DNA from: a virus
Lineage: Duplodnaviria; Heunggongvirae; Uroviricota; Caudoviricetes
Reading direction: 5' to 3' (one strand)
Virus record (IMG/VR): IMGVR_UViG_2630968911_000005
Length of the DNA: 27,633 bases
Numbering within the stretch: position 1 is the first letter of the stretch; the number at the start of each line of letters is the position of its first letter. Positions 4,664 to 24,327 of the stretch are shown piece after piece. Below the pieces are notes generated by a model. That model was not told the DNA's origin. It saw only the letters and a list, made by a program, of their open reading frames with translations, and ran no database searches. The translations under genes were made by a program, and so were the position numbers.

Positions 4664-4993
4664 ATGTGCTGTGGCAGCCGCATGTTCTGGTTCGATAAGT
4701 CTGACGAACGGGCGATATTCAGCGATATCAGAAAAGAAGGATACACATTACGCAATGGGAGACGCTTGATTATCAGCCCTGACATTATCGCAGATTTTCG
4801 TGCATTATCATTTGCAGACGCATCTTTTTCGATGGTTGTATTAGACCCTCCGCATCTTGAGAGTGTTGGTGATAACGCCTGGATGGGAAAGAAATATGGA
4901 CGGCTGAATAAAGATGCCTGGCGTGATGATTCGCGACAGAGATTTAAAGAAGCCTTTCGGGTGTTGAGGCCGCACGGCGTTCTGATTTTTTAA
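4664..4993 (+). pseudogene. Truncated DNA N6-adenine/N4-cytosine methyltransferase fragment (DPPH motif)
   Basis: ORF contains SFSMVVLDPPH followed by RVLRPHGVLIF, the pattern of amino-methyltransferase motif IV and a downstream block. It stops right after, with no continuation in any frame. Confidence 0.5.
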
Positions 4994-5415
4994 TGGAATG
5001 AAACGCAAATACCGGTAAGCCAGATTCTGGCACTGACAGACAGAAAACCTGTTATCTGTCAACGAACAGGGAAAAAACGATAAAACCCACTGGATTATTT
5101 TTATGAAAGAGGCATCCAGTGAGTAGATTCGTAAGGCTACAGATACGTATATCTGAATAATTAAATTCAGTTCTGTAAATAAAATTTAATCCTTAACCGG
5201 ATGGATTTCTGCACCCTCAGAACATCAGGAGGCCGCCCGAAAGGGCGGTAGTGAAATGCGAAAGTTCAAAATTATTATTGAAACGGGAATAGCTGGTGGA
5301 GATTTTGAGGATGTATTCGAAGTGGACGATGACGCAACACCTGAGGAAATTCATGACGGAGCATAAGAAATTTTCTTTAACTACTGCAATTACTCATACC
5401 ACGAAATAAAAGACG

Positions 5416-5607
5416 ATGAGGAAGAACAAAGTGGCTGATTTTTGTTCAGCTAAATATAACATCAGTTTTGAAGAGCGGGATGAACTATTAATGGACTATG
5501 GTGAGTTACGCGGTGGAAGTGCTGCTGATGTCGAATCCTAGCGTGATGACTATGAAGCGGGAAAAACTCCGGTCGAAGCATATTGTGATGAGTGGGGCGA
5601 TGAATGA
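5416..5607 (+). pseudogene. Small ORF with in-frame amber codon (TAG 5539-5541); read-through frame stays open to TGA 5605-5607
   Basis: Manual translation: MRKNKVADFCSAKYNISFEERDELLMDYGELRGGSAADVES-TAG-RDDYEAGKTPVEAYCDEWGDE. The extended frame ends in an ATGA overlap with the next ORF. Confidence 0.3.
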
Positions 5608-5891
5608 GCGAGATTAATTATCAGGAAGGGCATGAAACGGCGGGGCAAGCAAAACCAGTGGCATGGCGATATCGCTACGTGAAAAAAGGCGTTACGGACT
5701 TTCAGGGGAAGTAGTGGTCTGGTGACTGGAAATATGTACCGAAAAAAGAGGATTGTAACGACAGGCCGAACTATCAAATTCAGGCCTTATTCACTGCCTC
5801 ACCAGTCCCAGTTACATCAGAAGAACTGGTTAAAGCTGTGCACTTTTATGAACAACTAAAACGCGAAAATCCACCAACATCCGGCAACTAG
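5604..5891 (+). pseudogene. Small ORF with in-frame amber codon (TAG 5712-5714); 95-codon frame if read through
   Basis: Manual translation: MSEINYQEGHETAGQAKPVAWRYRYVKKGVTDFQGK-TAG-WSGDWKYVPKKEDCNDRPNYQIQALFTASPVPVTSEELVKAVHFYEQLKRENPPTSGN. The downstream segment reads like protein and has no stops for 58 codons. Confidence 0.3.
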
Positions 5892-6145
5892 ATTAATGGA
5901 TTAACTATGTCGGTTAAACGACCAGCCAACTGAAAAAGCGGAAACCTGATTACAGGTTGCCAGATAAGGCAATGAGCTACCTGGCGCGGAACGGACTGAT
6001 AAGTATGGGGAATGTTTTACGATGAACCTTTAGACTAAAGAGTTTGTAACGCTATGTAAGTGATTTTTTCTGGTTTAGATATTTATATGTCCGGCCAAAT
6101 TGAGGTGTGTTTAAATGTAATTGCACATTGATTGTAGGAGGAATA

Positions 6146-6325
6146 ATGAAAAACGCATTGCAGTTTTTGTTTGTTGCGTTCTGGTTGTTCGCATCATGTA
6201 TGCCCATCATCTTCACAGCAAGGTATATGGAAAAAGTTGATGTTTTGATATTAATATTTGGATATATAAATGCCCTTTTTTTAGGGGTGTTCATGGCGGT
6301 CATGTGCATTGAATACTGGCGGTAA
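6146..6325 (+). CDS. Small hydrophobic protein (59 aa, two predicted transmembrane segments)
   Basis: ATG at 6146 preceded by AGGAGG 6 nt upstream. Product MKNALQFLFVAFWLFASCMPIIFTARYMEKVDVLILIFGYINALFLGVFMAVMCIEYWR. Confidence 0.45.
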   Translation: MKNALQFLFVAFWLFASCMPIIFTARYMEKVDVLILIFGYINALFLGVFMAVMCIEYWR

Positions 6326-6659
6326 ATACAGCGAACTCCATTGGTTTAGTTGGATATTTACTGTGCTGGACAAAAACGGTTTGCGGGGAAATCTTAGTTA
6401 AGTAGAATGACTGCGGGTGCTTGAGGCTATCTGCCTCGGGCATGGACACCAACGGCAGATAGAGAAAAGCCCCAGTTAACATTACGCGTCCTGCAAGACG
6501 CTTAACATTAATCTGAGGCCAATTTCATGCTAGACACATGTAGGTTAGCCTCTTACGTGCCGAAAGGCACGGAGAAGCAGGCTATTGTTAACACCAAGCT
6601 GTAATGTCCCCTTTGAACCATTCTAAAATGTCCCCAGACAATTCTCTGGGGGATTTTTC

Positions 6660-7973
6660 ATGATCAAAGAGACTGTTACGATGAGTCATAAGGAACTCCA
6701 CCGACTTCAGATTATTCAGGAACAAGCTGCGGCACGCATTGGCATTTCTATTCGGCAGGTTAAACGTCTGGTGCAACGGTATAGAAATGAAGGGCCTTCT
6801 GGTCTGGTTTCCCACCGACGTGGAAAGCGTCCTAATAATTCCTTTTCTACTGAATTCAGAGCAACAGTAATTTCACTCCTCAAAGGCCGTTACGCTGATT
6901 TTGGACCTACGTTTGCGTGCGAAAAATTGCGCGAGATACACGGTTTATCTTTATCCGTTGAAACTCTCAGAAAGTGGATGATAGAAGAGGGGTTATGGCG
7001 TGAACGCCGTCGTAAAATTGCCCGTATATATCAACGCCGCATGCGACGACCATCTTACGGTGAACTGATCCAGATTGATGGCTCACCTCATGACTGGTTT
7101 GAAAATCGAGGCCCCAGATGTACACTGATCGTTTTCATTGATGATGCCACCAGTGCGTTGATGGCGTTGCGTTTTGTGCCTGCTGAAACAACCCGGGCTT
7201 ACATGGAAACCCTCCGGGGTTACCTTAATGATCATGGCGTACCGCTCGCTCTCTACTCTGATAGACACAGTATATTCAGGGTAAATAACCCAGAGCGGGA
7301 AGGTGAGCTGACCCAGTTCACTCGTGCGATAAAGACACTGGGCATCGAGCCAATCCATGCCAACAGCCCGCAGGCAAAAGGGCGGGTAGAGCGCGCCAAT
7401 CAGACACTACAGGACAGGCTGGTCAAAGAAATGCGGCTTCAGAATATCAGTGATATTGAAACAGCAAATGCATGGTTGCCGACCTTTATTGAAGCCTATA
7501 ACAACCGGTTCGCTACGTCGCCTCGTACTACTGATAATGCTCATCTTGATGTGCACCATTCTGAAGAGGAACTGGGTTATATCTTCAGCCTACAGGCGAA
7601 GCGCGTTCTGTCTAAAAATCTCACTTTCCAGTACAAAAGCAGTGCGTTTCAGGTACGCAGTGAGGGCCGGGGATATCGACTTAGGCATTCGGTTGTTACT
7701 GTATGCGAGAACTTTGACGGTGAAATTAACGTTCTGTATGACGGGAAAGCGCTGGGCTGGGAAAAGTATGTTGATGGCCCGGAGCCTATACCACTGGATG
7801 ATGAAAAGAGTGTCCATGAACGAGTGGATAATGCCCGTATTGATTTACGCTCAAAATACTATGTTAAACCTAAAGCTGACCATCCCTGGCTTACGCGCCG
7901 AACGCAAAGTCATCAGCAAGTTAAGCCCCCGAAGTTACCTAAAAAGAAGCCTGATCCCGATAAAAAAGATTGA
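6660..7973 (+). CDS. DDE transposase/integrase, rve superfamily with N-terminal HTH; IS481-family or ISNCY(IS1202-group)-like
   Basis: 437-aa ORF. N-terminal pattern RQVKRLVQRYRNEGPSGLVSHRRGKRP; catalytic D (IQIDGS), D (LYSDRHSIF) and E (GRVERANQTLQ). RBS GGGGGA upstream of ATG. Confidence 0.8.
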   Translation: MIKETVTMSHKELHRLQIIQEQAAARIGISIRQVKRLVQRYRNEGPSGLVSHRRGKRPNNSFSTEFRATVISLLKGRYADFGPTFACEKLREIHGLSLSVETLRKWMIEEGLWRERRRKIARIYQRRMRRPSYGELIQIDGSPHDWFENRGPRCTLIVFIDDATSALMALRFVPAETTRAYMETLRGYLNDHGVPLALYSDRHSIFRVNNPEREGELTQFTRAIKTLGIEPIHANSPQAKGRVERANQTLQDRLVKEMRLQNISDIETANAWLPTFIEAYNNRFATSPRTTDNAHLDVHHSEEELGYIFSLQAKRVLSKNLTFQYKSSAFQVRSEGRGYRLRHSVVTVCENFDGEINVLYDGKALGWEKYVDGPEPIPLDDEKSVHERVDNARIDLRSKYYVKPKADHPWLTRRTQSHQQVKPPKLPKKKPDPDKKD

Positions 7974-8005
7974 AACCAAGATCGATTCGGTTGAGTGCAT
8001 TGATC

Positions 8006-8896
8006 CTACCCACGTAATATGGACACAGGCCTAAGCGAGGTTCTGGTTTTCAATTGTTCCGGACTGAGGCCGCCACACCAACTGTGCCGCCGCCACCGAT
8101 TGTAATCACATTCGATATAATTAAATACCGTTGCCCGCATTATTTCCCGGCTGATAAAGTGTTTTCCATGGATACATTCCACTTTCAGCGAATGAAAGAA
8201 GCTTTCCACGCAGGCATTATCGTAGCAGCAACCTTTTGCGCTCATACTTCCACGCAGATTATGCCGCTTCAGTTGCGCCTGATAATCTGCTGAACAGTAC
8301 TGGCCTCCACGGTCCGTGTGAACGATAACGTTCCGGGGCCTCTTACGCCGCCACAGCGCCATCTGCAGGGCATCGCAGGCCAGTTGCGCCGTCATGCGTG
8401 GCGACATTGACCAGCCAATAACGGCACGTGACCACAGGTCAATGACCACTGCCAGATACAGCCAGCCTTCATCTGTACGTAAGTACGTGATGTCTCCTGC
8501 CCACTTCTGGTTCGGGCCACTGGCGTAAAAATCCTGCTCCAACAGATTTTCTGACACAGGCAGGCCGTGTGCGCGGTAGCTGACCGGGCTGAACTTCCGG
8601 GAGGCCTTTGCCCTCAGTCCCTGACGGCGCAGGCTTGCCGCCACGGTTTTTACGTTAAAGGGGTAACCCTGAGCACGCAGTTCATCCGTCAGGCGTGGGG
8701 CACCGTAACGCTGTTTTGACCGGGTAAAAGCCGCGAGGACAACGCTGTCGCAGTGTTGGCGGAACTGCTGACGCGTGCTTATCCTTGTCCGCCGCTGACA
8801 CCACGTATACCAGCCGCTGCGGGCCACCCGGAGCACGCGGCACATTGCTTTGATGCTGAACTCAGCCTGATGTTTTTCAATAAAGACATACTTCAT
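8006..8896 (-). CDS. insF: IS3 transposase OrfB (InsF), DDE integrase core
   Basis: Protein matches IS3 InsF as recalled ([21 protein letters not shown] ... DRGGQYCS ...) except at the extreme C-terminus. Confidence 0.9.
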
Positions 8897-9192
8897 TTCA
8901 GGCGCTTCGCGAAGTATGTCGCGGCCTTTTGGAGGATAGCCAGCTCTTCATCCCGTTCTGCCAGCTGGCGTTTGAGACGTGCAATCTCGGTAGACATCTC
9001 CAGTTCACGTTCAGAAGACGTCTGCTGATTTTGCTGTTTACTGCGCCAGTTGTAGAGCAGTGATTCATACAGGCTGAGTTCACGGGCTGCGGCAGTAACA
9101 CCGATGCGTTCAGCAAGCTTCAGGGCTTCACTGCGAAATTCAGGCGAATGCTGTTTACGGGGTTTTTTACTGGTTGATACTGTTTTTGTCAT
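8893..9192 (-). CDS. insE: IS3 transposase OrfA (InsE), HTH protein
   Basis: [32 protein letters not shown]... matches IS3 OrfA as recalled. The ORF track begins 3 codons upstream (9201). Confidence 0.9.
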
Positions 9193-9669
9193 GTGAGTCA
9201 CCTCTGACTGAGAGTTTACTCACTTAGCCGCGTGTCCACTATTGCTGGGTAAGATCACATATCCATTCATAGGGTAGATTCTTAAGTCGCGTTTCTGGTG
9301 TTCATTTTCGGGTGGTTTGTTACTTGTTTTACCGGGGATATGCCAGAAACGCGCTGAGTCAGTCTGGGCGGTGCGCGTAATGAGGCGTTATGGTAAATAG
9401 CCTATGCTAATGTCCGCTAAGAGCAAGAAGCGGAAGTTGGCAGTTTTGTGGACTGTCCCCACAAAAGTGACTACAGAAATAGTTGCAATTCATAATTGAT
9501 CATGGGTTGTCAGTTAAACTCGTGGCGATTTAAATAGACTAATTGGGAGTGCGTCCATTACTTATATCTTGTAATGTTAACTATCAGAAATGATACAAAG
9601 ATAATATGTCTTTAAAGAAAAGGCTGATGGCGAAAAGTGGCCCGATGAGGGCCACAATACGGCTGTCAC

Positions 9670-10002
9670 TTAGACGTAAATATCAATGGTGCCAGCGGTA
9701 TTTGTATCGTCTTTTTTCTCTTCTTTTTTATCAGGCTGAACTGTCGCGTCTTCATTCTTTTTCTCTGCCTGCTGCCTTAACAACTGCTCCAGTTGAGCCC
9801 AGAGGCTTTCAATTTGCTTCTGTACCAATGCAGCCATTTCTTTTTTCTGCTGTGTCGTCATCCCCTCTTCCGATGAGATTTTCCCAAGCTTTTCAGTCAG
9901 CACCTGAATTTGTCTTGTGATTTTGGCTATTTCTGATGTTCCTTCCGGGGCGGAGTTGTTTGAAATAACGGTTGAGGTATTTCCCTGAATTGTGACAGAC
10001 AT
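9670..10002 (-). CDS. flxA: FlxA-like protein (FliA-regulated prophage gene)
   Basis: 110-aa product matches E. coli K-12 FlxA as recalled. RBS AAGGAG upstream. Confidence 0.9.
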   Translation of the reverse strand: MSVTIQGNTSTVISNNSAPEGTSEIAKITRQIQVLTEKLGKISSEEGMTTQQKKEMAALVQKQIESLWAQLEQLLRQQAEKKNEDATVQPDKKEEKKDDTNTAGTIDIYV

Positions 10003-10025
10003 AGATTTCTCCTTTTAAAAAAGCA

Positions 10026-10052
10026 CTATCGGCATGCACAAAAAAATCTTTA
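10026..10052 (-). promoter_or_regulatory. Sigma-28 (FliA) class 3 flagellar-type promoter for flxA
   Basis: Minus strand reads TAAA-N15-GCCGATAG (consensus TAAA-N15-GCCGATAA), ending about 24 nt upstream of the flxA ATG. Confidence 0.6.
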
Positions 10053-10204
10053 ATCGTATTTCTTGTGTCATTAATTGTTTGATGTTCAGATTGTTTTCCT
10101 CGCGGGCTGGCGCGCCTCAGAAAGTAAAGCTTGTTGACAGGGGTAAACGTTCGGCAATAATTTTCTGCCGCATGCGGGTGTTGCATAAAACGTGTTACGT
10201 TCCT

Positions 10205-10510
10205 TTATCGACAGGTCAGGTCACCGCTCACCCGCCGACGAGAAAGCAACACTGACATGCTAAAGCAAAAAATAGATGAATAAGTTGAGTTGTGCATATG
10301 TAGCCTGACCGTCACAAAGTATATGGTGTCTGTACCAGTAAGATGATGGCCGGACTCTTTAAAAACGAGCTGACCTGCACAATACAGGATGGACTTAGCA
10401 ATGGCTGCTCCTGGCACAAAGCGGACAGTGATCACCGTTCTTACGACTACTTTCTGACTTCCTTCGTGACTTGCCCTAAGCATGTTGTAGTGCGATACTT
10501 GTAATGACAT
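10205..10510 (-). CDS. ydfV: Hypothetical protein (YdfV-like position and length, 101 aa); doubtful gene
   Basis: ORF divergent from relB, same position and length as K-12 ydfV. No clear RBS or motifs. Confidence 0.3.
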   Translation of the reverse strand: MSLQVSHYNMLRASHEGSQKVVVRTVITVRFVPGAAIAKSILYCAGQLVFKESGHHLTGTDTIYFVTVRLHMHNSTYSSIFCFSMSVLLSRRRVSGDLTCR

Positions 10511-10523
10511 TTGTAATTACAAG
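10471..10523 (+). promoter_or_regulatory. relBE promoter (TTGCCC-N17-GATACT) with overlapping operator repeats (relO)
   Basis: CTTGTAATGACATTTGTAATTACAAG at 10498-10523 has repeated TTGTAAT hexads with dyad symmetry, just upstream of relB. Confidence 0.6.
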
Positions 10524-10534
10524 AGGTGTAAGAC

Positions 10535-10774
10535 ATGGGTAGCATTAACCTGCGTATTGACGATGAACTTAAAGCGCGTTCTTACGCCGCGCTTGAAAAA
10601 ATGGGTGTAACTCCTTCTGAAGCGCTTCGTCTCATGCTCGAGTATATCGCTGACAATGAACGCTTGCCGTTCAAACAGACACTCCTGAGTGATGAAGATG
10701 CTGAACTTGTGGAGATAGTGAAAGAACGGCTTCGTAATCCTAAGCCAGTACGTGTGACGCTGGATGAACTCTGA
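10535..10774 (+). CDS. relB: RelB antitoxin
   Basis: 79-aa product matches K-12 RelB as recalled (MGSINLRIDDELKARSYA...). Stop overlaps relE start (TGATG). Confidence 0.95.
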   Translation: MGSINLRIDDELKARSYAALEKMGVTPSEALRLMLEYIADNERLPFKQTLLSDEDAELVEIVKERLRNPKPVRVTLDEL

Positions 10775-11061
10775 TGGCGTATTTTCTGGATTTTGACGAG
10801 CGGGCACTAAAGGAATGGCGAAAGCTGGGCTCGACGGTACGTGAACAGTTGAAAAAGAAGCTGGTTGAAGTACTTGAGTCACCCCGGATTGAAGCAAACA
10901 AGCTCCGTGGTATGCCTGATTGTTACAAGATTAAGCTCCGGTCTTCAGGCTATCGCCTTGTATACCAGGTTATAGACGAGAAAGTTGTCGTTTTCGTGAT
11001 TTCTGTTGGGAAAAGAGAACGCTCGGAAGTATATAGCGAGGCGGTCAAACGCATTCTCTGA
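10774..11061 (+). CDS. relE: RelE mRNA interferase toxin
   Basis: 95-aa product matches K-12 RelE as recalled (MAYFLDFDERALKEW...). Confidence 0.95.
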   Translation: MAYFLDFDERALKEWRKLGSTVREQLKKKLVEVLESPRIEANKLRGMPDCYKIKLRSSGYRLVYQVIDEKVVVFVISVGKRERSEVYSEAVKRIL

Positions 11062-11132
11062 ACCAAAGCATGACATCTCTGTTTCGCACCGAAGGTGACA
11101 CTTCTGCTTTGCGTTGACAGGAGAAGCAGGCT

Positions 11133-11288
11133 ATGAAGCAGCAAAAGGCGATGTTAATCGCCCTGATCGTCATCTGTTTAACCGTCATAGTGACGGCACT
11201 GGTAACGAGGAAAGACCTCTGCGAGGTACGAATCCGAACCGGCCAGACGGAGGTCGCTGTCTTCACAGCTTACGAACCTGAGGAGTAA
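11133..11288 (+). CDS. hokD: Hok-family small membrane toxin HokD (RelF), 51 aa
   Basis: Manual translation MKQQKAMLIALIVICLTVIVTALVTRKDLCEVRIRTGQTEVAVFTAYEPEE. Below the ORF-track size cutoff. RBS GGAGAAG upstream. Confidence 0.85.
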   Translation: MKQQKAMLIALIVICLTVIVTALVTRKDLCEVRIRTGQTEVAVFTAYEPEE

Positions 11289-11356
11289 GAGACCCGGCGG
11301 GGGAGAAATCCCTCGCCACCTCTGATGTGGCAGGCATCCTCAACGCACCCGCACTT

Positions 11357-11390
11357 AACCCGCTTCGGCGGGTTTTTGTTTTTATTTTCA
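11357..11390 (+). terminator. Rho-independent terminator after the relBE-hokD operon
   Basis: Stem CCCGC/GCGGG with TTCG loop, followed by TTTTTGTTTTTATTTT. Confidence 0.6.
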
Positions 11391-11504
11391 ACGCGTTTGA
11401 AGTTCTGGACGGTGCCGGAATAGAATCAAAAATACTTAAGTAGCGCGCAGGGATAAGAGGGATGGTCCCTTAAAGGGGAGAGCTAATTATCCGGAAGGAT
11501 TCTG

Positions 11505-11756
11505 ATGATGAACATCGAAGAACTGCGTAAAATTTTTTGTGAAGATGGCCTCTATGCTGTGTGCGTTGAAAATGGAAATCTTGTTAGTCATTACCGCATT
11601 ATGTGTTTGCGAAAGAATGGGGCTGCGTTAATTAATTTTGTGGATGCTCGGGTCACGGACGGATTTATCTTGCGCGAAGGTGAGTTTGTCACTTCATTAC
11701 AGGCATTGAAAGAGATCGGAATAAAAGCTGGCTTTTCTGCTTTTTCAGGAGAATAA
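11505..11756 (+). CDS. rem: Rem protein (function unknown)
   Basis: 83-aa product matches K-12 Rem as recalled (MMNIEELRKIFCEDGLYAVC...). Confidence 0.85.
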   Translation: MMNIEELRKIFCEDGLYAVCVENGNLVSHYRIMCLRKNGAALINFVDARVTDGFILREGEFVTSLQALKEIGIKAGFSAFSGE

Positions 11757-14552: not shown

Positions 14553-14852
14553 AAAAATTCCTTAATACTGATAACTTGGCGCACTATACACACGTTCCTG
14601 AAGAAAGCTATAGTTTTTTGATGGGGTTGAAGATGGCTGGATGTCTAAAATAAACATTGCTTCATATGTTCAACTATGCGTTAATGATTGCGTCGGTTTG
14701 AAGAACAGACGATATACGAAGTAGTTTACTAAAGCAGTTCTCATTTCAGGTGTTATTCACTTATTCCTTCTTTGAGTCTCTCCAATTAAGTACGAAGTCG
14801 TTTCTGTTATGCAAACCATTTATGCCGAAAGGCTCAAGTTAAGGAATGTAGA

Positions 14853-15068
14853 ATGTCAAATAAAATGACTGGTTTAGTAAAATGGTTTAACGCTGATAAA
14901 GGTTTCGGCTTTATTTCTCCTGTTGATGGTAGTAAAGATGTGTTTGTGCATTTTTCTGCGATTCAGAATGATAATTATCGAACCTTATTTGAAGGTCAAA
15001 AGGTTACCTTCTCTATAGAGAGTGGTGCTAAAGGTCCTGCAGCAGCAAATGTCATCATTACTGATTAA
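14853..15068 (+). CDS. cspB: Cold-shock protein CspB
   Basis: 71-aa product with RNP motifs (KGFGFI, VFVHF). Long AT-rich 5' leader upstream. Confidence 0.92.
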
Positions 15069-15347
15069 AATTCATCGCTCGTCTGTATACGATAACGAAG
15101 AAGGCTGATGCCTGAGTAGAGATACGGACAGAGTAGTGAATATTGGATCTCTTTAATAAAAAGTAAGGAGGTCCAATACATGAAACAATGGCTAGCATAT
15201 TTGGCAAAATCTTAATCAGGAAAAGTATGCTAACCATTGTGGTGAAGTGCAGGTTTGCTGCATGAATAGTTTTACAGCAGAAGCTAACTGCTGGCATGGC
15301 AAAACAAAGTGCGTAAGTGGATGACTCCCACAAAAAGCACCACAATC

Positions 15348-17377: not shown

Positions 17378-17739
17378 GGTAATATTAAATCGGAACATTT
17401 ACATCGCGGAATGTAAAATTTAAATAAAAAGGACTCTTCCATGAGCCAAAATTCCTGAAATCTTAAGGGTAAGATAAAAGGTCTTAATCAGAATGACACG
17501 TTTTATTAATAAATAAAGCTATTCTTTCATTGCTGTGTTTTTCTTTACAAAAGTAATCCTTGCTATGGGTGGTTAATCATGCGTTAATGGTGTTCTGGTT
17601 TGTTACAAATTTATCTGAAGCAGTCATTGTTATAATTTTATTATTTGTACCTCTTGAGATTTCCTTGTTGGTTTTTCTCTCTGATATTTTTTTTCGGACC
17701 ATTCTGCCCAAGGGCTAATTTCTTCAAAAGGTAATAATT

Positions 17740-17952
17740 ATGTCTAACAAAATGACTGGTTTAGTGAAATGGTTTAACCCTGAAAAAGGTTTTGGTTTCA
17801 TCACGCCGAAAGATGGCAGCAAAGATGTGTTTGTCCATTTCTCAGCAATTCAGAGCAACGATTTCAAAACATTAACTGAGAATCAGGAAGTTGAATTTGG
17901 TATTGAGAACGGACCTAAAGGTCCTGCCGCTGTTCATGTAGTGGCGCTTTGA
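17740..17952 (+). CDS. cspI: Cold-shock protein CspI
   Basis: 70-aa cold-shock-domain protein ([34 protein letters not shown]...). RBS AAGGTAA. About 350-nt AT-rich leader. Confidence 0.92.
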
Positions 17953-18156
17953 GGTAGACAATATTACAAACCATATTCACTTTAGATGCCCGTGTTGTCA
18001 TGGTTCCCAGTATAGAACATCATCTTTTGATGTTTCTGACATGAATCCTTTCGGGGCAAAATGTATCTTTTGTAAATCAATGATGATTACATTTGATAAT
18101 ATTTCACAATACTTAAATGCCAGCCGTCTGTCGTTGGATTTAAAAAAGTGAAAATG

Positions 18157-23752: not shown

Positions 23753-24327
23753 TGGCATTCAGAATGAGTGAACAACCACGGACCATAACAATTTATAATC
23801 TGCTGGCCGGAACTAATGAATTTATTGGTGAAGGTGATGCATATATTCCGCCTCATACAGGTCTGCCAGCAAACAGTACCGATATTGCACCGCCAGATAT
23901 TCCGGCTGGCTTCGTGGCTGTTTTCAACAGTGATGAGTCATCGTGGCATCTCGTTGAAGATCATCGGGGTAAAACGGTTTATGACGTGGCTTCCGGCGAC
24001 GCGTTATTTATTTCTGAACTCGGTCCGTTACCGAAAAATGTTACCTGGTTATCGCCGGAAGGGGAGTTTCAGAAGTGGAACGGCACAGCCTGGGTGAAGG
24101 ATACGGAAGCAGAAAAACTGTTCCGGATCCGGGAGGCGGAAGAAACAAAAAACAACCTGATGCAGGTAGCCAGTGAGCATATTGCGCCGCTTCAGGATGC
24201 TGCAGATCTGGAAATTGCAACGGAGGAAGAAATCTCGTTGCTGGAAGCATGGAAAAAGTATCGGGTATTGCTGAACCGTGTTGATACGTCAACTGCACAG
24301 GATATTGAATGGCCAGCACTGCCGTAG
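23752..24327 (+). CDS. tfaQ: Tail fibre assembly protein (Tfa)
   Basis: 191-aa ORF overlapping the stf stop (TAATG). N-terminus [26 protein letters not shown]. Confidence 0.85.

Follow-up and report, generated by a model that had tools for sequence, protein, structure and literature searches.

The relBEF operon in the window

We analysed a 27,633-nucleotide stretch of viral DNA (Caudoviricetes; IMG/VR record IMGVR_UViG_2630968911_000005), referred to below as the window, with a focus on its relB-relE-hokD genes. The whole window corresponds to a Qin-type prophage of a non-K-12 strain and is covered at 100% in strain G4/9, its best whole-window match. Three open reading frames (ORFs) on the + strand form the canonical Qin-prophage relBEF operon (relB-relE-hokD). 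A preliminary description, made from the sequence alone, had called this a complete module with two toxin types in one operon, and all of the features that it described were found where it had placed them:

10471-10499, + strand: relBE promoter, read from the sequence (-35 TTGCCC at 10471-10476, 17-bp spacer, -10 GATACT at 10494-10499)
10499-10522: relO operator, four contiguous hexads TTGTAA, TGACAT, TTGTAA and TTACAA that make up two 12-bp half-sites
10535-10774, + strand: relB, 79 aa, ribbon-helix-helix antitoxin and repressor (K-12 accession WP_000534858.1)
10774-11061, + strand: relE, 95 aa, ribosome-dependent mRNA endonuclease toxin (K-12 accession WP_000323025.1)
11133-11288, + strand: hokD (relF), 51-aa Hok-family membrane toxin (WP_000813254.1)
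11271-11273, + strand: Tyr47 codon TAC of hokD, within TTACGAA, a reported site of low-level TadA A-to-I editing (Tyr to Cys)
11339-11353, + strand: fold-back-inhibition (fbi) element of the hokD mRNA, whose 5' partner no longer adjoins it
11357-11384, + strand: intrinsic terminator native to the hokD locus, a G+C-rich 7-bp stem (11357-11374) followed by a T-run

The segment 10400-11450 was 100.0% identical in nucleotide sequence to Escherichia coli K-12 MG1655, C600, J53, ATCC 8739 and many other strains, in which relB, relE, hokD and ydfV are annotated, and at least 80% of it was present in 1,162 of 5,426 complete E. coli genomes. Since RelB, RelE and HokD have the K-12 accessions, which are the same again in strain G4/9, alignment to K-12 relBEF, the check proposed in the preliminary description, revealed no inactivating substitutions in RelE or HokD. 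The one-base overlap read between relB and relE was borne out, with base 10774 shared by the relB stop codon TGA (10772-10774) and the relE ATG (10774-10776); a 71-nt spacer separates relE from hokD. RelB matched Pfam PF04221 (1e-32), the NCBIfam equivalog NF008412 (133 bits, cut-off 96) and, over its full length, chain A of PDB 4FXE, the RelB2E2 crystal structure. RelE matched PF05016 (ParE_toxin/RelE, 2e-13) and the RelE/StbE family TIGR02385, with full-length matches to ribosome-bound RelE (PDB 4V7J and 4V7K) and to 4FXE. The residues K52, K54, R61, R81 and Y87, which we take to be those of the RelE active site, were all present in the translation. HokD matched PF01848 (HOK_GEF) at 1.2e-23 over 42 of the 42 model positions, and its gene is closed by the hairpin and T-run, as had been described. 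Judging from sequence identity, RelE toxicity, its neutralisation by RelB and Lon-dependent RelB turnover would be as in the characterised K-12 proteins.

Promoter, relO, spacer, terminator and all three proteins are the same in K-12 relBEF, with no difference within the operon. The operon itself thus adds nothing new, and both relBEF and the co-transcription of its three genes are already known. On northern blots, relB, relE and relF probes detected one full-length transcript, which was gone upon deletion of the relB promoter (PMC3598666); these data fit the reading that one operon holds toxins of two types. What the window alone keeps, relative to K-12, lies upstream: a transposase gene, a left terminal inverted repeat, the left copy of a target duplication and the hokD leader, plus an extra IS3 insertion.

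The relBE transcription start would lie at about position 10506. The promoter positions fit the published mapping, with TACT at -10 to -7 within the -10 box and relO at -10 to +17 (PMC2812701). In that work relO consists of four [A/T]TGT[A/C]A hexads arranged as two half-sites that abut without spacing, the first being TTGTAATGACAT, and RelB2-RelE complexes bind it over -10 to +17 (PMC2812701). Published work further describes that RelB2-RelE on relO represses the promoter and that an excess of RelE lifts the repression (conditional cooperativity). TTGTAAT occurred at 10499-10505 (+), 10511-10517 (+) and 10516-10522 (-), that is, three times within 24 bp, compared to 10 copies in the whole window, where about 6 are expected by chance; a repeat search at the operator returned a 12-bp direct repeat plus inverted repeats. 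The preliminary description had repeated TTGTAAT units across the -10 region. The repeats do lie near -10, but the unit is a 6-bp hexad rather than a heptad, and the operator is not centred on -10: it begins with the final base of the -10 box and extends across the -10/+1 boundary and the start site to about +17.

Two halves of a hokD/sok locus flank a transposon-like element

Between the operon and a sok-like sequence far upstream of hokD, the following features were found:

6411-6585, + strand: severed 5' half of a hokD/sok locus, with the tac element, the mok translation-initiation region and the Sok target/Sok gene region
6571-6585: left copy of the target duplication, GGAGAAGCAGGCTAT, 15 bp
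6586-6613, + strand: left terminal inverted repeat (IRL), TGTTAACACCAAGCTGTAATGTCCCCTT, 28 bp
6660-7973, + strand: IS1202-family (ISNCY/ISEsa1-like) DDE transposase, 437 aa
8001-9257, - strand: secondary IS3 insertion with a 3-bp duplication, CAT, 27 nt past the transposase stop codon
6586-8000 plus 9258 to about 9430: left arm, about 1.6 kb, split by IS3
about 9430-10406: variable cargo of this copy, with flxA (9670-10002, - strand) and most of the ydfV ORF
10407-11119, + strand: conserved right arm, 713 bp, with the relBE promoter/relO, relB, relE and the right terminal inverted repeat
11092-11119, + strand: right terminal inverted repeat (IRR), inside the 71-nt relE-hokD spacer
11120-11134: right copy of the target duplication, GGAGAAGCAGGCTAT, which supplies the hokD Shine-Dalgarno sequence (SD; GGAG) and the AT of its ATG

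The element occupies 4,534 bp (6586-11119). Its flanking duplication is perfect, and the 15-mer occurred in exactly two copies in the window against 0.05 expected. IRL and the reverse complement of IRR matched at 21 of 28 positions, and both repeats lie directly inside the duplications. The same IRL was present in more than 20 related loci.

The sequence to the left of IRL gave a full-length match to the Rfam model RF01794 'sok' at 6415-6586 (104 bits, gathering score 59), about 4.5 kb upstream of hokD, the two being separated by 4,534 bp. As it stands, 6411-6585 is an orphan hok-leader/sok element with no hok gene after it, the severed half of hokD. The reverse complement of the hokD fbi element, GCGGGTGCGTTGAGG, matches GCGGGTGCTTGAGG in this leader (about 6413-6426) except for one extra base. 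Around hokD itself no Rfam sok match was obtained in 10300-11600, even at E<=10, because the element separates hokD from its leader; in the empty-site genome L007 the leader is contiguous with hokD.

The element was excised in silico by joining 6300-6585 to 11135-11520, and the join was searched against complete E. coli genomes. In 1,848 genomes it gave one contiguous, ungapped match at 99.1% identity that took in 100% of the query. In the empty site of E. coli strain 2 HS-C, GGAGAAGCAGGCTAT is present as a single copy, the sok leader, hokD and rem follow each other in a row, and the order of genes is a DUF7167 gene, two hypothetical ORFs, hokD, rem and ydfU, prophage surroundings that the window shares; the uninterrupted locus encodes the identical HokD (WP_000813254.1). 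The terminator is part of the excised locus that matches at 99% and now ends the relBEF transcript. Taken together, the terminal repeats, the target duplication and the abundant empty site indicate, from sequence comparison, that 6586-11119 is an insertion that interrupts a resident hokD/sok locus exactly where hokD translation starts.

The left junction was kept in 678 complete E. coli genomes, compared to 1,162 for the relBE-hokD junction. K-12 retains only the parts corresponding to 7789-8000 and 9258-11119 of the element; IRL, the left duplication and the hokD leader are gone, and no transposase is visible. This loss of the left end is why K-12 does not reveal the transposon origin. The K-12 segment dicF-ydfC-ydfB-ydfA-dicA-dicC-ydfX (L001 13484-15649) has no counterpart in the window, which at 4683-6026 carries instead an S-adenosylmethionine (SAM)-methyltransferase gene, pseudogenes of the DUF7167 type and other pseudogenes; the window does have dicB, and Rfam reports no DicF there.

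An IS1202-family transposon with two conserved arms

The transposase matched NCBIfam NF033594 (ISNCY_2) with 456 bits (cut-off 250) and contains helix-turn-helix (HTH) and rve_3 domains; transposases 92-98% identical to it are annotated as ISEsa1 family, for example in L008. In the annotation of strain G4/9 the gene is a partial pseudogene. The IS3 copy is absent from K-12 and from Shigella flexneri (L020), where an otherwise identical element measures 3,301 bp.

A search with the transposase as query, limited to one genome per species, returned 79 loci. The distant relatives (Hahella, 62% amino-acid identity and many copies; Chromatiales; Rhabdochlamydiaceae) are simple 1.45-kb insertion sequences (IS) with ends like IRL and IRR and perfect 15-17-bp duplications, and their IRRs match that of the window at 21-23 of 28 positions. 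A true IS end thus lies beside relE, and duplications of 15 bp are normal for the family, in agreement with the ISTde1 subgroup of IS1202. A reading of the 71-nt relE-hokD spacer as a diverged hok leader was accordingly rejected, as its last 28 nt are the IRR and match these distant simple IS.

The enterobacterial relatives were larger (2.6-9.2 kb) and had the same two arms around differing cargo, with perfect 13-16-bp duplications; duplications of 13-17 bp were found in more than 25 related copies altogether. Homology of the window to the other elements ends at about 9430 and restarts at about 10407. In place of flxA, relatives carried chromate and nickel resistance genes (a Klebsiella plasmid) or SDR, MFS and AraC genes (an Enterobacter plasmid), and targets and cargo were distinct across L009-L028, L041 and L081. 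Despite other cargo and targets, the right arm was 99% identical in L011, L013, L014, L017, L021 and L026, six of the loci with a mapped IRR, and 96% identical in L028; the elements with a 99% identical right arm come from Enterobacter, Citrobacter, Pseudocitrobacter, Kluyvera and 'Ca. Pantoea alvi'. The annotated ydfV ORF (10205-10510, - strand) crosses the boundary between cargo and right arm at about 10407 and has its start in the relO/relBE promoter; it had no match in Pfam or NCBIfam and may be chimeric or spurious.

ISEsa1 is catalogued in ISfinder at 1,609 bp with 'no TSD detected' (PMC10132070). This length is that of the conserved left arm alone, which would explain why no duplication was detected; the unit bounded by duplications continues through the cargo to the IRR beyond relE. 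This points to incomplete boundaries in the ISEsa1 catalogue entry.

At its outer end the IRR has the six bases TTGACA (11114-11119), a perfect outward-facing -35 hexamer, with no matching -10 in hokD. At other targets, this -35-bearing end could form hybrid promoters.

Insertions at hok translation starts

Of 19 distinct enterobacterial left-junction contexts, 11 read as a hok SD/ATG region: the window with L020 (hokD), L009, L010, L011/L012/L015/L016, L014/L026, L017 (hokE-like), L019, L024 (opposite orientation), L025 (tandem elements), L028 and L042. Independent support, either an Rfam sok match that ends at IRL or a flanking Pfam HOK_GEF ORF or both, was available for 8 of the 11. In the window, L010, L014, L017, L020, L026, L028 and L042, the match to the sok model covers all of its positions (1-157 of 157) and stops exactly at IRL, and the flanking ORFs in L009, L011, L014, L017, L028 and L024 encode HOK_GEF proteins of different subfamilies; L019 and L025 were assigned to hok by their junction sequence alone. 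The duplication always preserved the hok SD and ATG, and in 10 of the 11 contexts relE reads toward the hok side. Non-hok targets were found at L013, L021, L022, L027, L041 and L081.

Because the right arms are 99% identical while the adjoining hok genes differ widely, these sequences indicate that the hok insertions are recent and largely independent events. L009 and L010 may not be independent, as their leader flanks are near-identical. The sole hok insertion in the opposite orientation, in Citrobacter portucalensis (L024 9767-9926), has IRL abutting the hok coding side. In Leclercia sp. EMC7 (L025 11500-11560), two related elements lie head-to-tail in one hok start region, with the junction order IRR, GAAGGCTATG and IRL of the second element, which suggests that the same target was used repeatedly.

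A search for a strict target consensus brought out no more than a short motif, ...GCAA, which directly precedes the duplication on its 5' side and is common to the hok sites, the non-hok sites and the Hahella IS copies. The enrichment at hok could reflect site recognition, the conserved GGCAAGGAG of hok leaders or the survival of insertions on mobile DNA, and we do not favour one of the three over the others.

Transcription and translation of hokD after the insertion

The comparison indicates that an ISEsa1-like transposon inserted at the SD/ATG region of the resident prophage hokD/sok locus and duplicated 15 bp. The hokD promoter, tac, mok and the Sok region were thereby left 4.5 kb upstream, and the hokD coding sequence, with its SD restored by the duplication, came to lie 71 nt downstream of relE. 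Placed behind relE in this way, hokD is read by transcripts from the relBE promoter, which pass through the IRR and stop at hokD's own terminator, in line with the published co-transcription. A scan of the relE-hokD interval for an internal promoter or terminator found none.

As a hok/sok locus, hokD lacks a contiguous promoter of its own, the tac/ucb elements, a mok frame and a Sok antisense RNA, and it retains the 3' fbi element and the terminator. The description of the module as complete thus holds for relBE, whose promoter and operator are present, and not for hokD, which is without its own promoter, mok frame and Sok target. With the promoter, tac, mok-coupled translation and Sok target lost, Sok could not control hokD, and HokD output would instead follow relBE transcription and mRNA processing. 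The relF part was reported as the most abundant transcript fragment after toxin-induced cleavage (PMC3598666).

The target duplication keeps AGGAG 9 nt upstream of the hokD ATG. The segment from relE to the terminator folded better than shuffled sequences (z = -3.8), and its predicted fold pairs 11110-11121, which holds the IRR tip and SD, with 11340-11347 of the fbi element and with 11277-11280. Since the SD region is predicted to be paired, hokD translation from the full-length transcript would probably be weak. In the same predicted fold, the IRR tip UGCGUUGA pairs perfectly with hokD fbi UCAACGCA, mimicking the native tac-fbi fold-back, and CAGG pairs with CCUG just past the edited Tyr codon. 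We tested the IRR tip-fbi pairing as a general rule and make no such claim: it was predicted for the window and partly for L009, and not for L011, L014, L017 or L028. As most other hok types do not reproduce it, it is kept here as an unexplained observation. The hokD mRNA is reported to be about 6% edited at the Tyr codon (PMC12214031; bioRxiv 10.1101/2025.08.07.668861), and HokD is toxic upon expression (bioRxiv 10.1101/2025.08.07.668861).

Alternative explanations

The data above make it very probable that the canonical relBEF operon formed where an IS1202-family transposon bearing relBE met the hokD/sok locus that it split, hokD being read from the relBE promoter. Earlier literature suggests another route, in which relBE entered hokD as an autonomous minimal cassette through an unspecified recombination or rearrangement and without a transposon: hokD was described as inactivated by 'genomic rearrangements' (PMC12214031) and relBE from plasmids as 'integrated' into ancestral hokD (PMC6379469), and K-12 indeed shows neither transposase nor left end. 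We consider this very unlikely, since IRL, transposase and left duplication are kept in the window and in the 678 E. coli genomes with a left junction, the element ends match those of simple IS relatives, precise excision restores the locus found in 1,848 genomes, and copies at unrelated targets have the same two arms, unrelated cargo and a perfect duplication each of their own. Even more improbable is that 6411-6585 was left behind when an IS truncated a second, unrelated hok/sok locus, with the 15-mer merely a conserved hok ribosome-binding sequence. Across hok genes the SD region is conserved as GGAGAAG.AGGC.ATG, and for this reason the 15-nt repeat by itself would be weak evidence. The two halves, however, join into an ungapped match at 99.1% in the same 1,848 genomes, with the same prophage genes around them (a DUF7167 gene and others upstream, rem and ydfU downstream), the leader tac is complementary to the hokD fbi, and the repeats abut matching inverted repeats; assignment of the upstream sok fragment to another hok locus was rejected on the in-silico excision test.

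Several points weigh against the transposon origin, or against hokD expression from the relBE promoter. The transposase ORF is open, but an in-frame gap of 27 nt sets it apart from all other copies compared (1,415 vs 1,442 aligned bases); with this gap and the IS3 insertion, the copy in the window may be inactive, and the mobility of the element is suggested by comparative structure. The relBE promoter was not called by a simple consensus scan, and its placement rests on the published mapping. HokD protein made from the chromosomal operon was not found documented in the literature that we reached.

As for the family, we see roughly even chances that the enterobacterial relBE-carrying IS1202/ISEsa1-type elements prefer hok SD/start regions on plasmids and prophages, mostly in one orientation, with K-12 relBEF a decayed example and ISEsa1 the left arm only. 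A stronger version would hold that the family targets hok initiation regions in a fixed orientation in order to capture the toxin, yielding a functional dual-toxin addiction or defence module. The share of left junctions at hok SD/ATG (11 of 19), the orientation of relE toward hok in 10 of 11 and the independent support for 8 of 11 would fit such an adaptive capture, as would the constant preservation of the hok SD and ATG, the abundance of the relF fragment after toxin-induced cleavage and the toxicity of expressed HokD. We find it rather doubtful, however. The GCAA preference is also seen at non-hok sites and in the Hahella IS, so that mobile DNA may simply offer a favourable, conserved site in hok; the insertion in L024 is reversed, six loci are at non-hok sites, and the literature reached attributes no phenotype to chromosomal hokD.

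Relation to known systems

Plasmid R1's hok/sok locus and the intact hokD/sok loci (E. coli 2 HS-C; an E. fergusonii IncY plasmid) likewise have a Hok-family toxin, a 3' fbi element and a terminator, and the intact hokD/sok relatives have the same hokD coding sequence as the window; in contrast to them, hokD in the window is cut from promoter, tac, mok and Sok and is transcribed from the promoter of a type II toxin-antitoxin (TA) system. With the IS1202 family (ISEsa1; the ISTde1 subgroup with its 15-17 bp duplications) the element shares a like transposase, terminal repeats that are imperfect and about 25-28 bp long, and a duplication of 15-17 bp. IS1202 elements of the ISAjo2/ISAba32 type, which use dif/pdif XerCD sites, likewise show oriented, site-specific insertion and repeated use of a site, comparable to the tandem in L025. 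They differ in that the target here is the hok initiation region, the duplication is 13-16 bp rather than 5 bp, and relBE is carried. In Tn3-family transposons with TA modules, a type II TA is likewise a conserved part of the transposon, the transposase being of another family; we know of no report that these target another TA locus. In K-12, hokA, hokC and hokE are inactivated by insertion elements (PMC12214031). These too are chromosomal hok genes disrupted by mobile elements, in their case ordinary IS, whereas the element here brings a promoter and a second TA that takes over hok transcription.

In searchable papers, with ISfinder and TnCentral records outside the search, we came upon no account of the transposase, of the duplication and terminal repeats, or of hok as a recurrent target; the transposon origin of relBEF is possibly undescribed so far. 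Elsewhere in the window, two cspA-type thermoregulator 5' untranslated region (UTR) matches lie upstream of cspB and cspI; the prophage late region also has a match to IS009 RNA:

14692-15084, 17594-17979 and 24095-24293: cspA-type 5' UTR and IS009 RNA matches

This origin explains why a Hok toxin without Sok or mok stands within a type II TA operon, and it makes the flxA and relBE genes of Qin the cargo of a transposon. It also points to a testable preference of an IS1202-family element for hok start regions. Deletion or induction studies of K-12 relBE call for caution, because hokD is on the same transcript. If the preference holds, one toxin-antitoxin system would ride on a transposon that takes over another, with the type I toxin cut from Sok.

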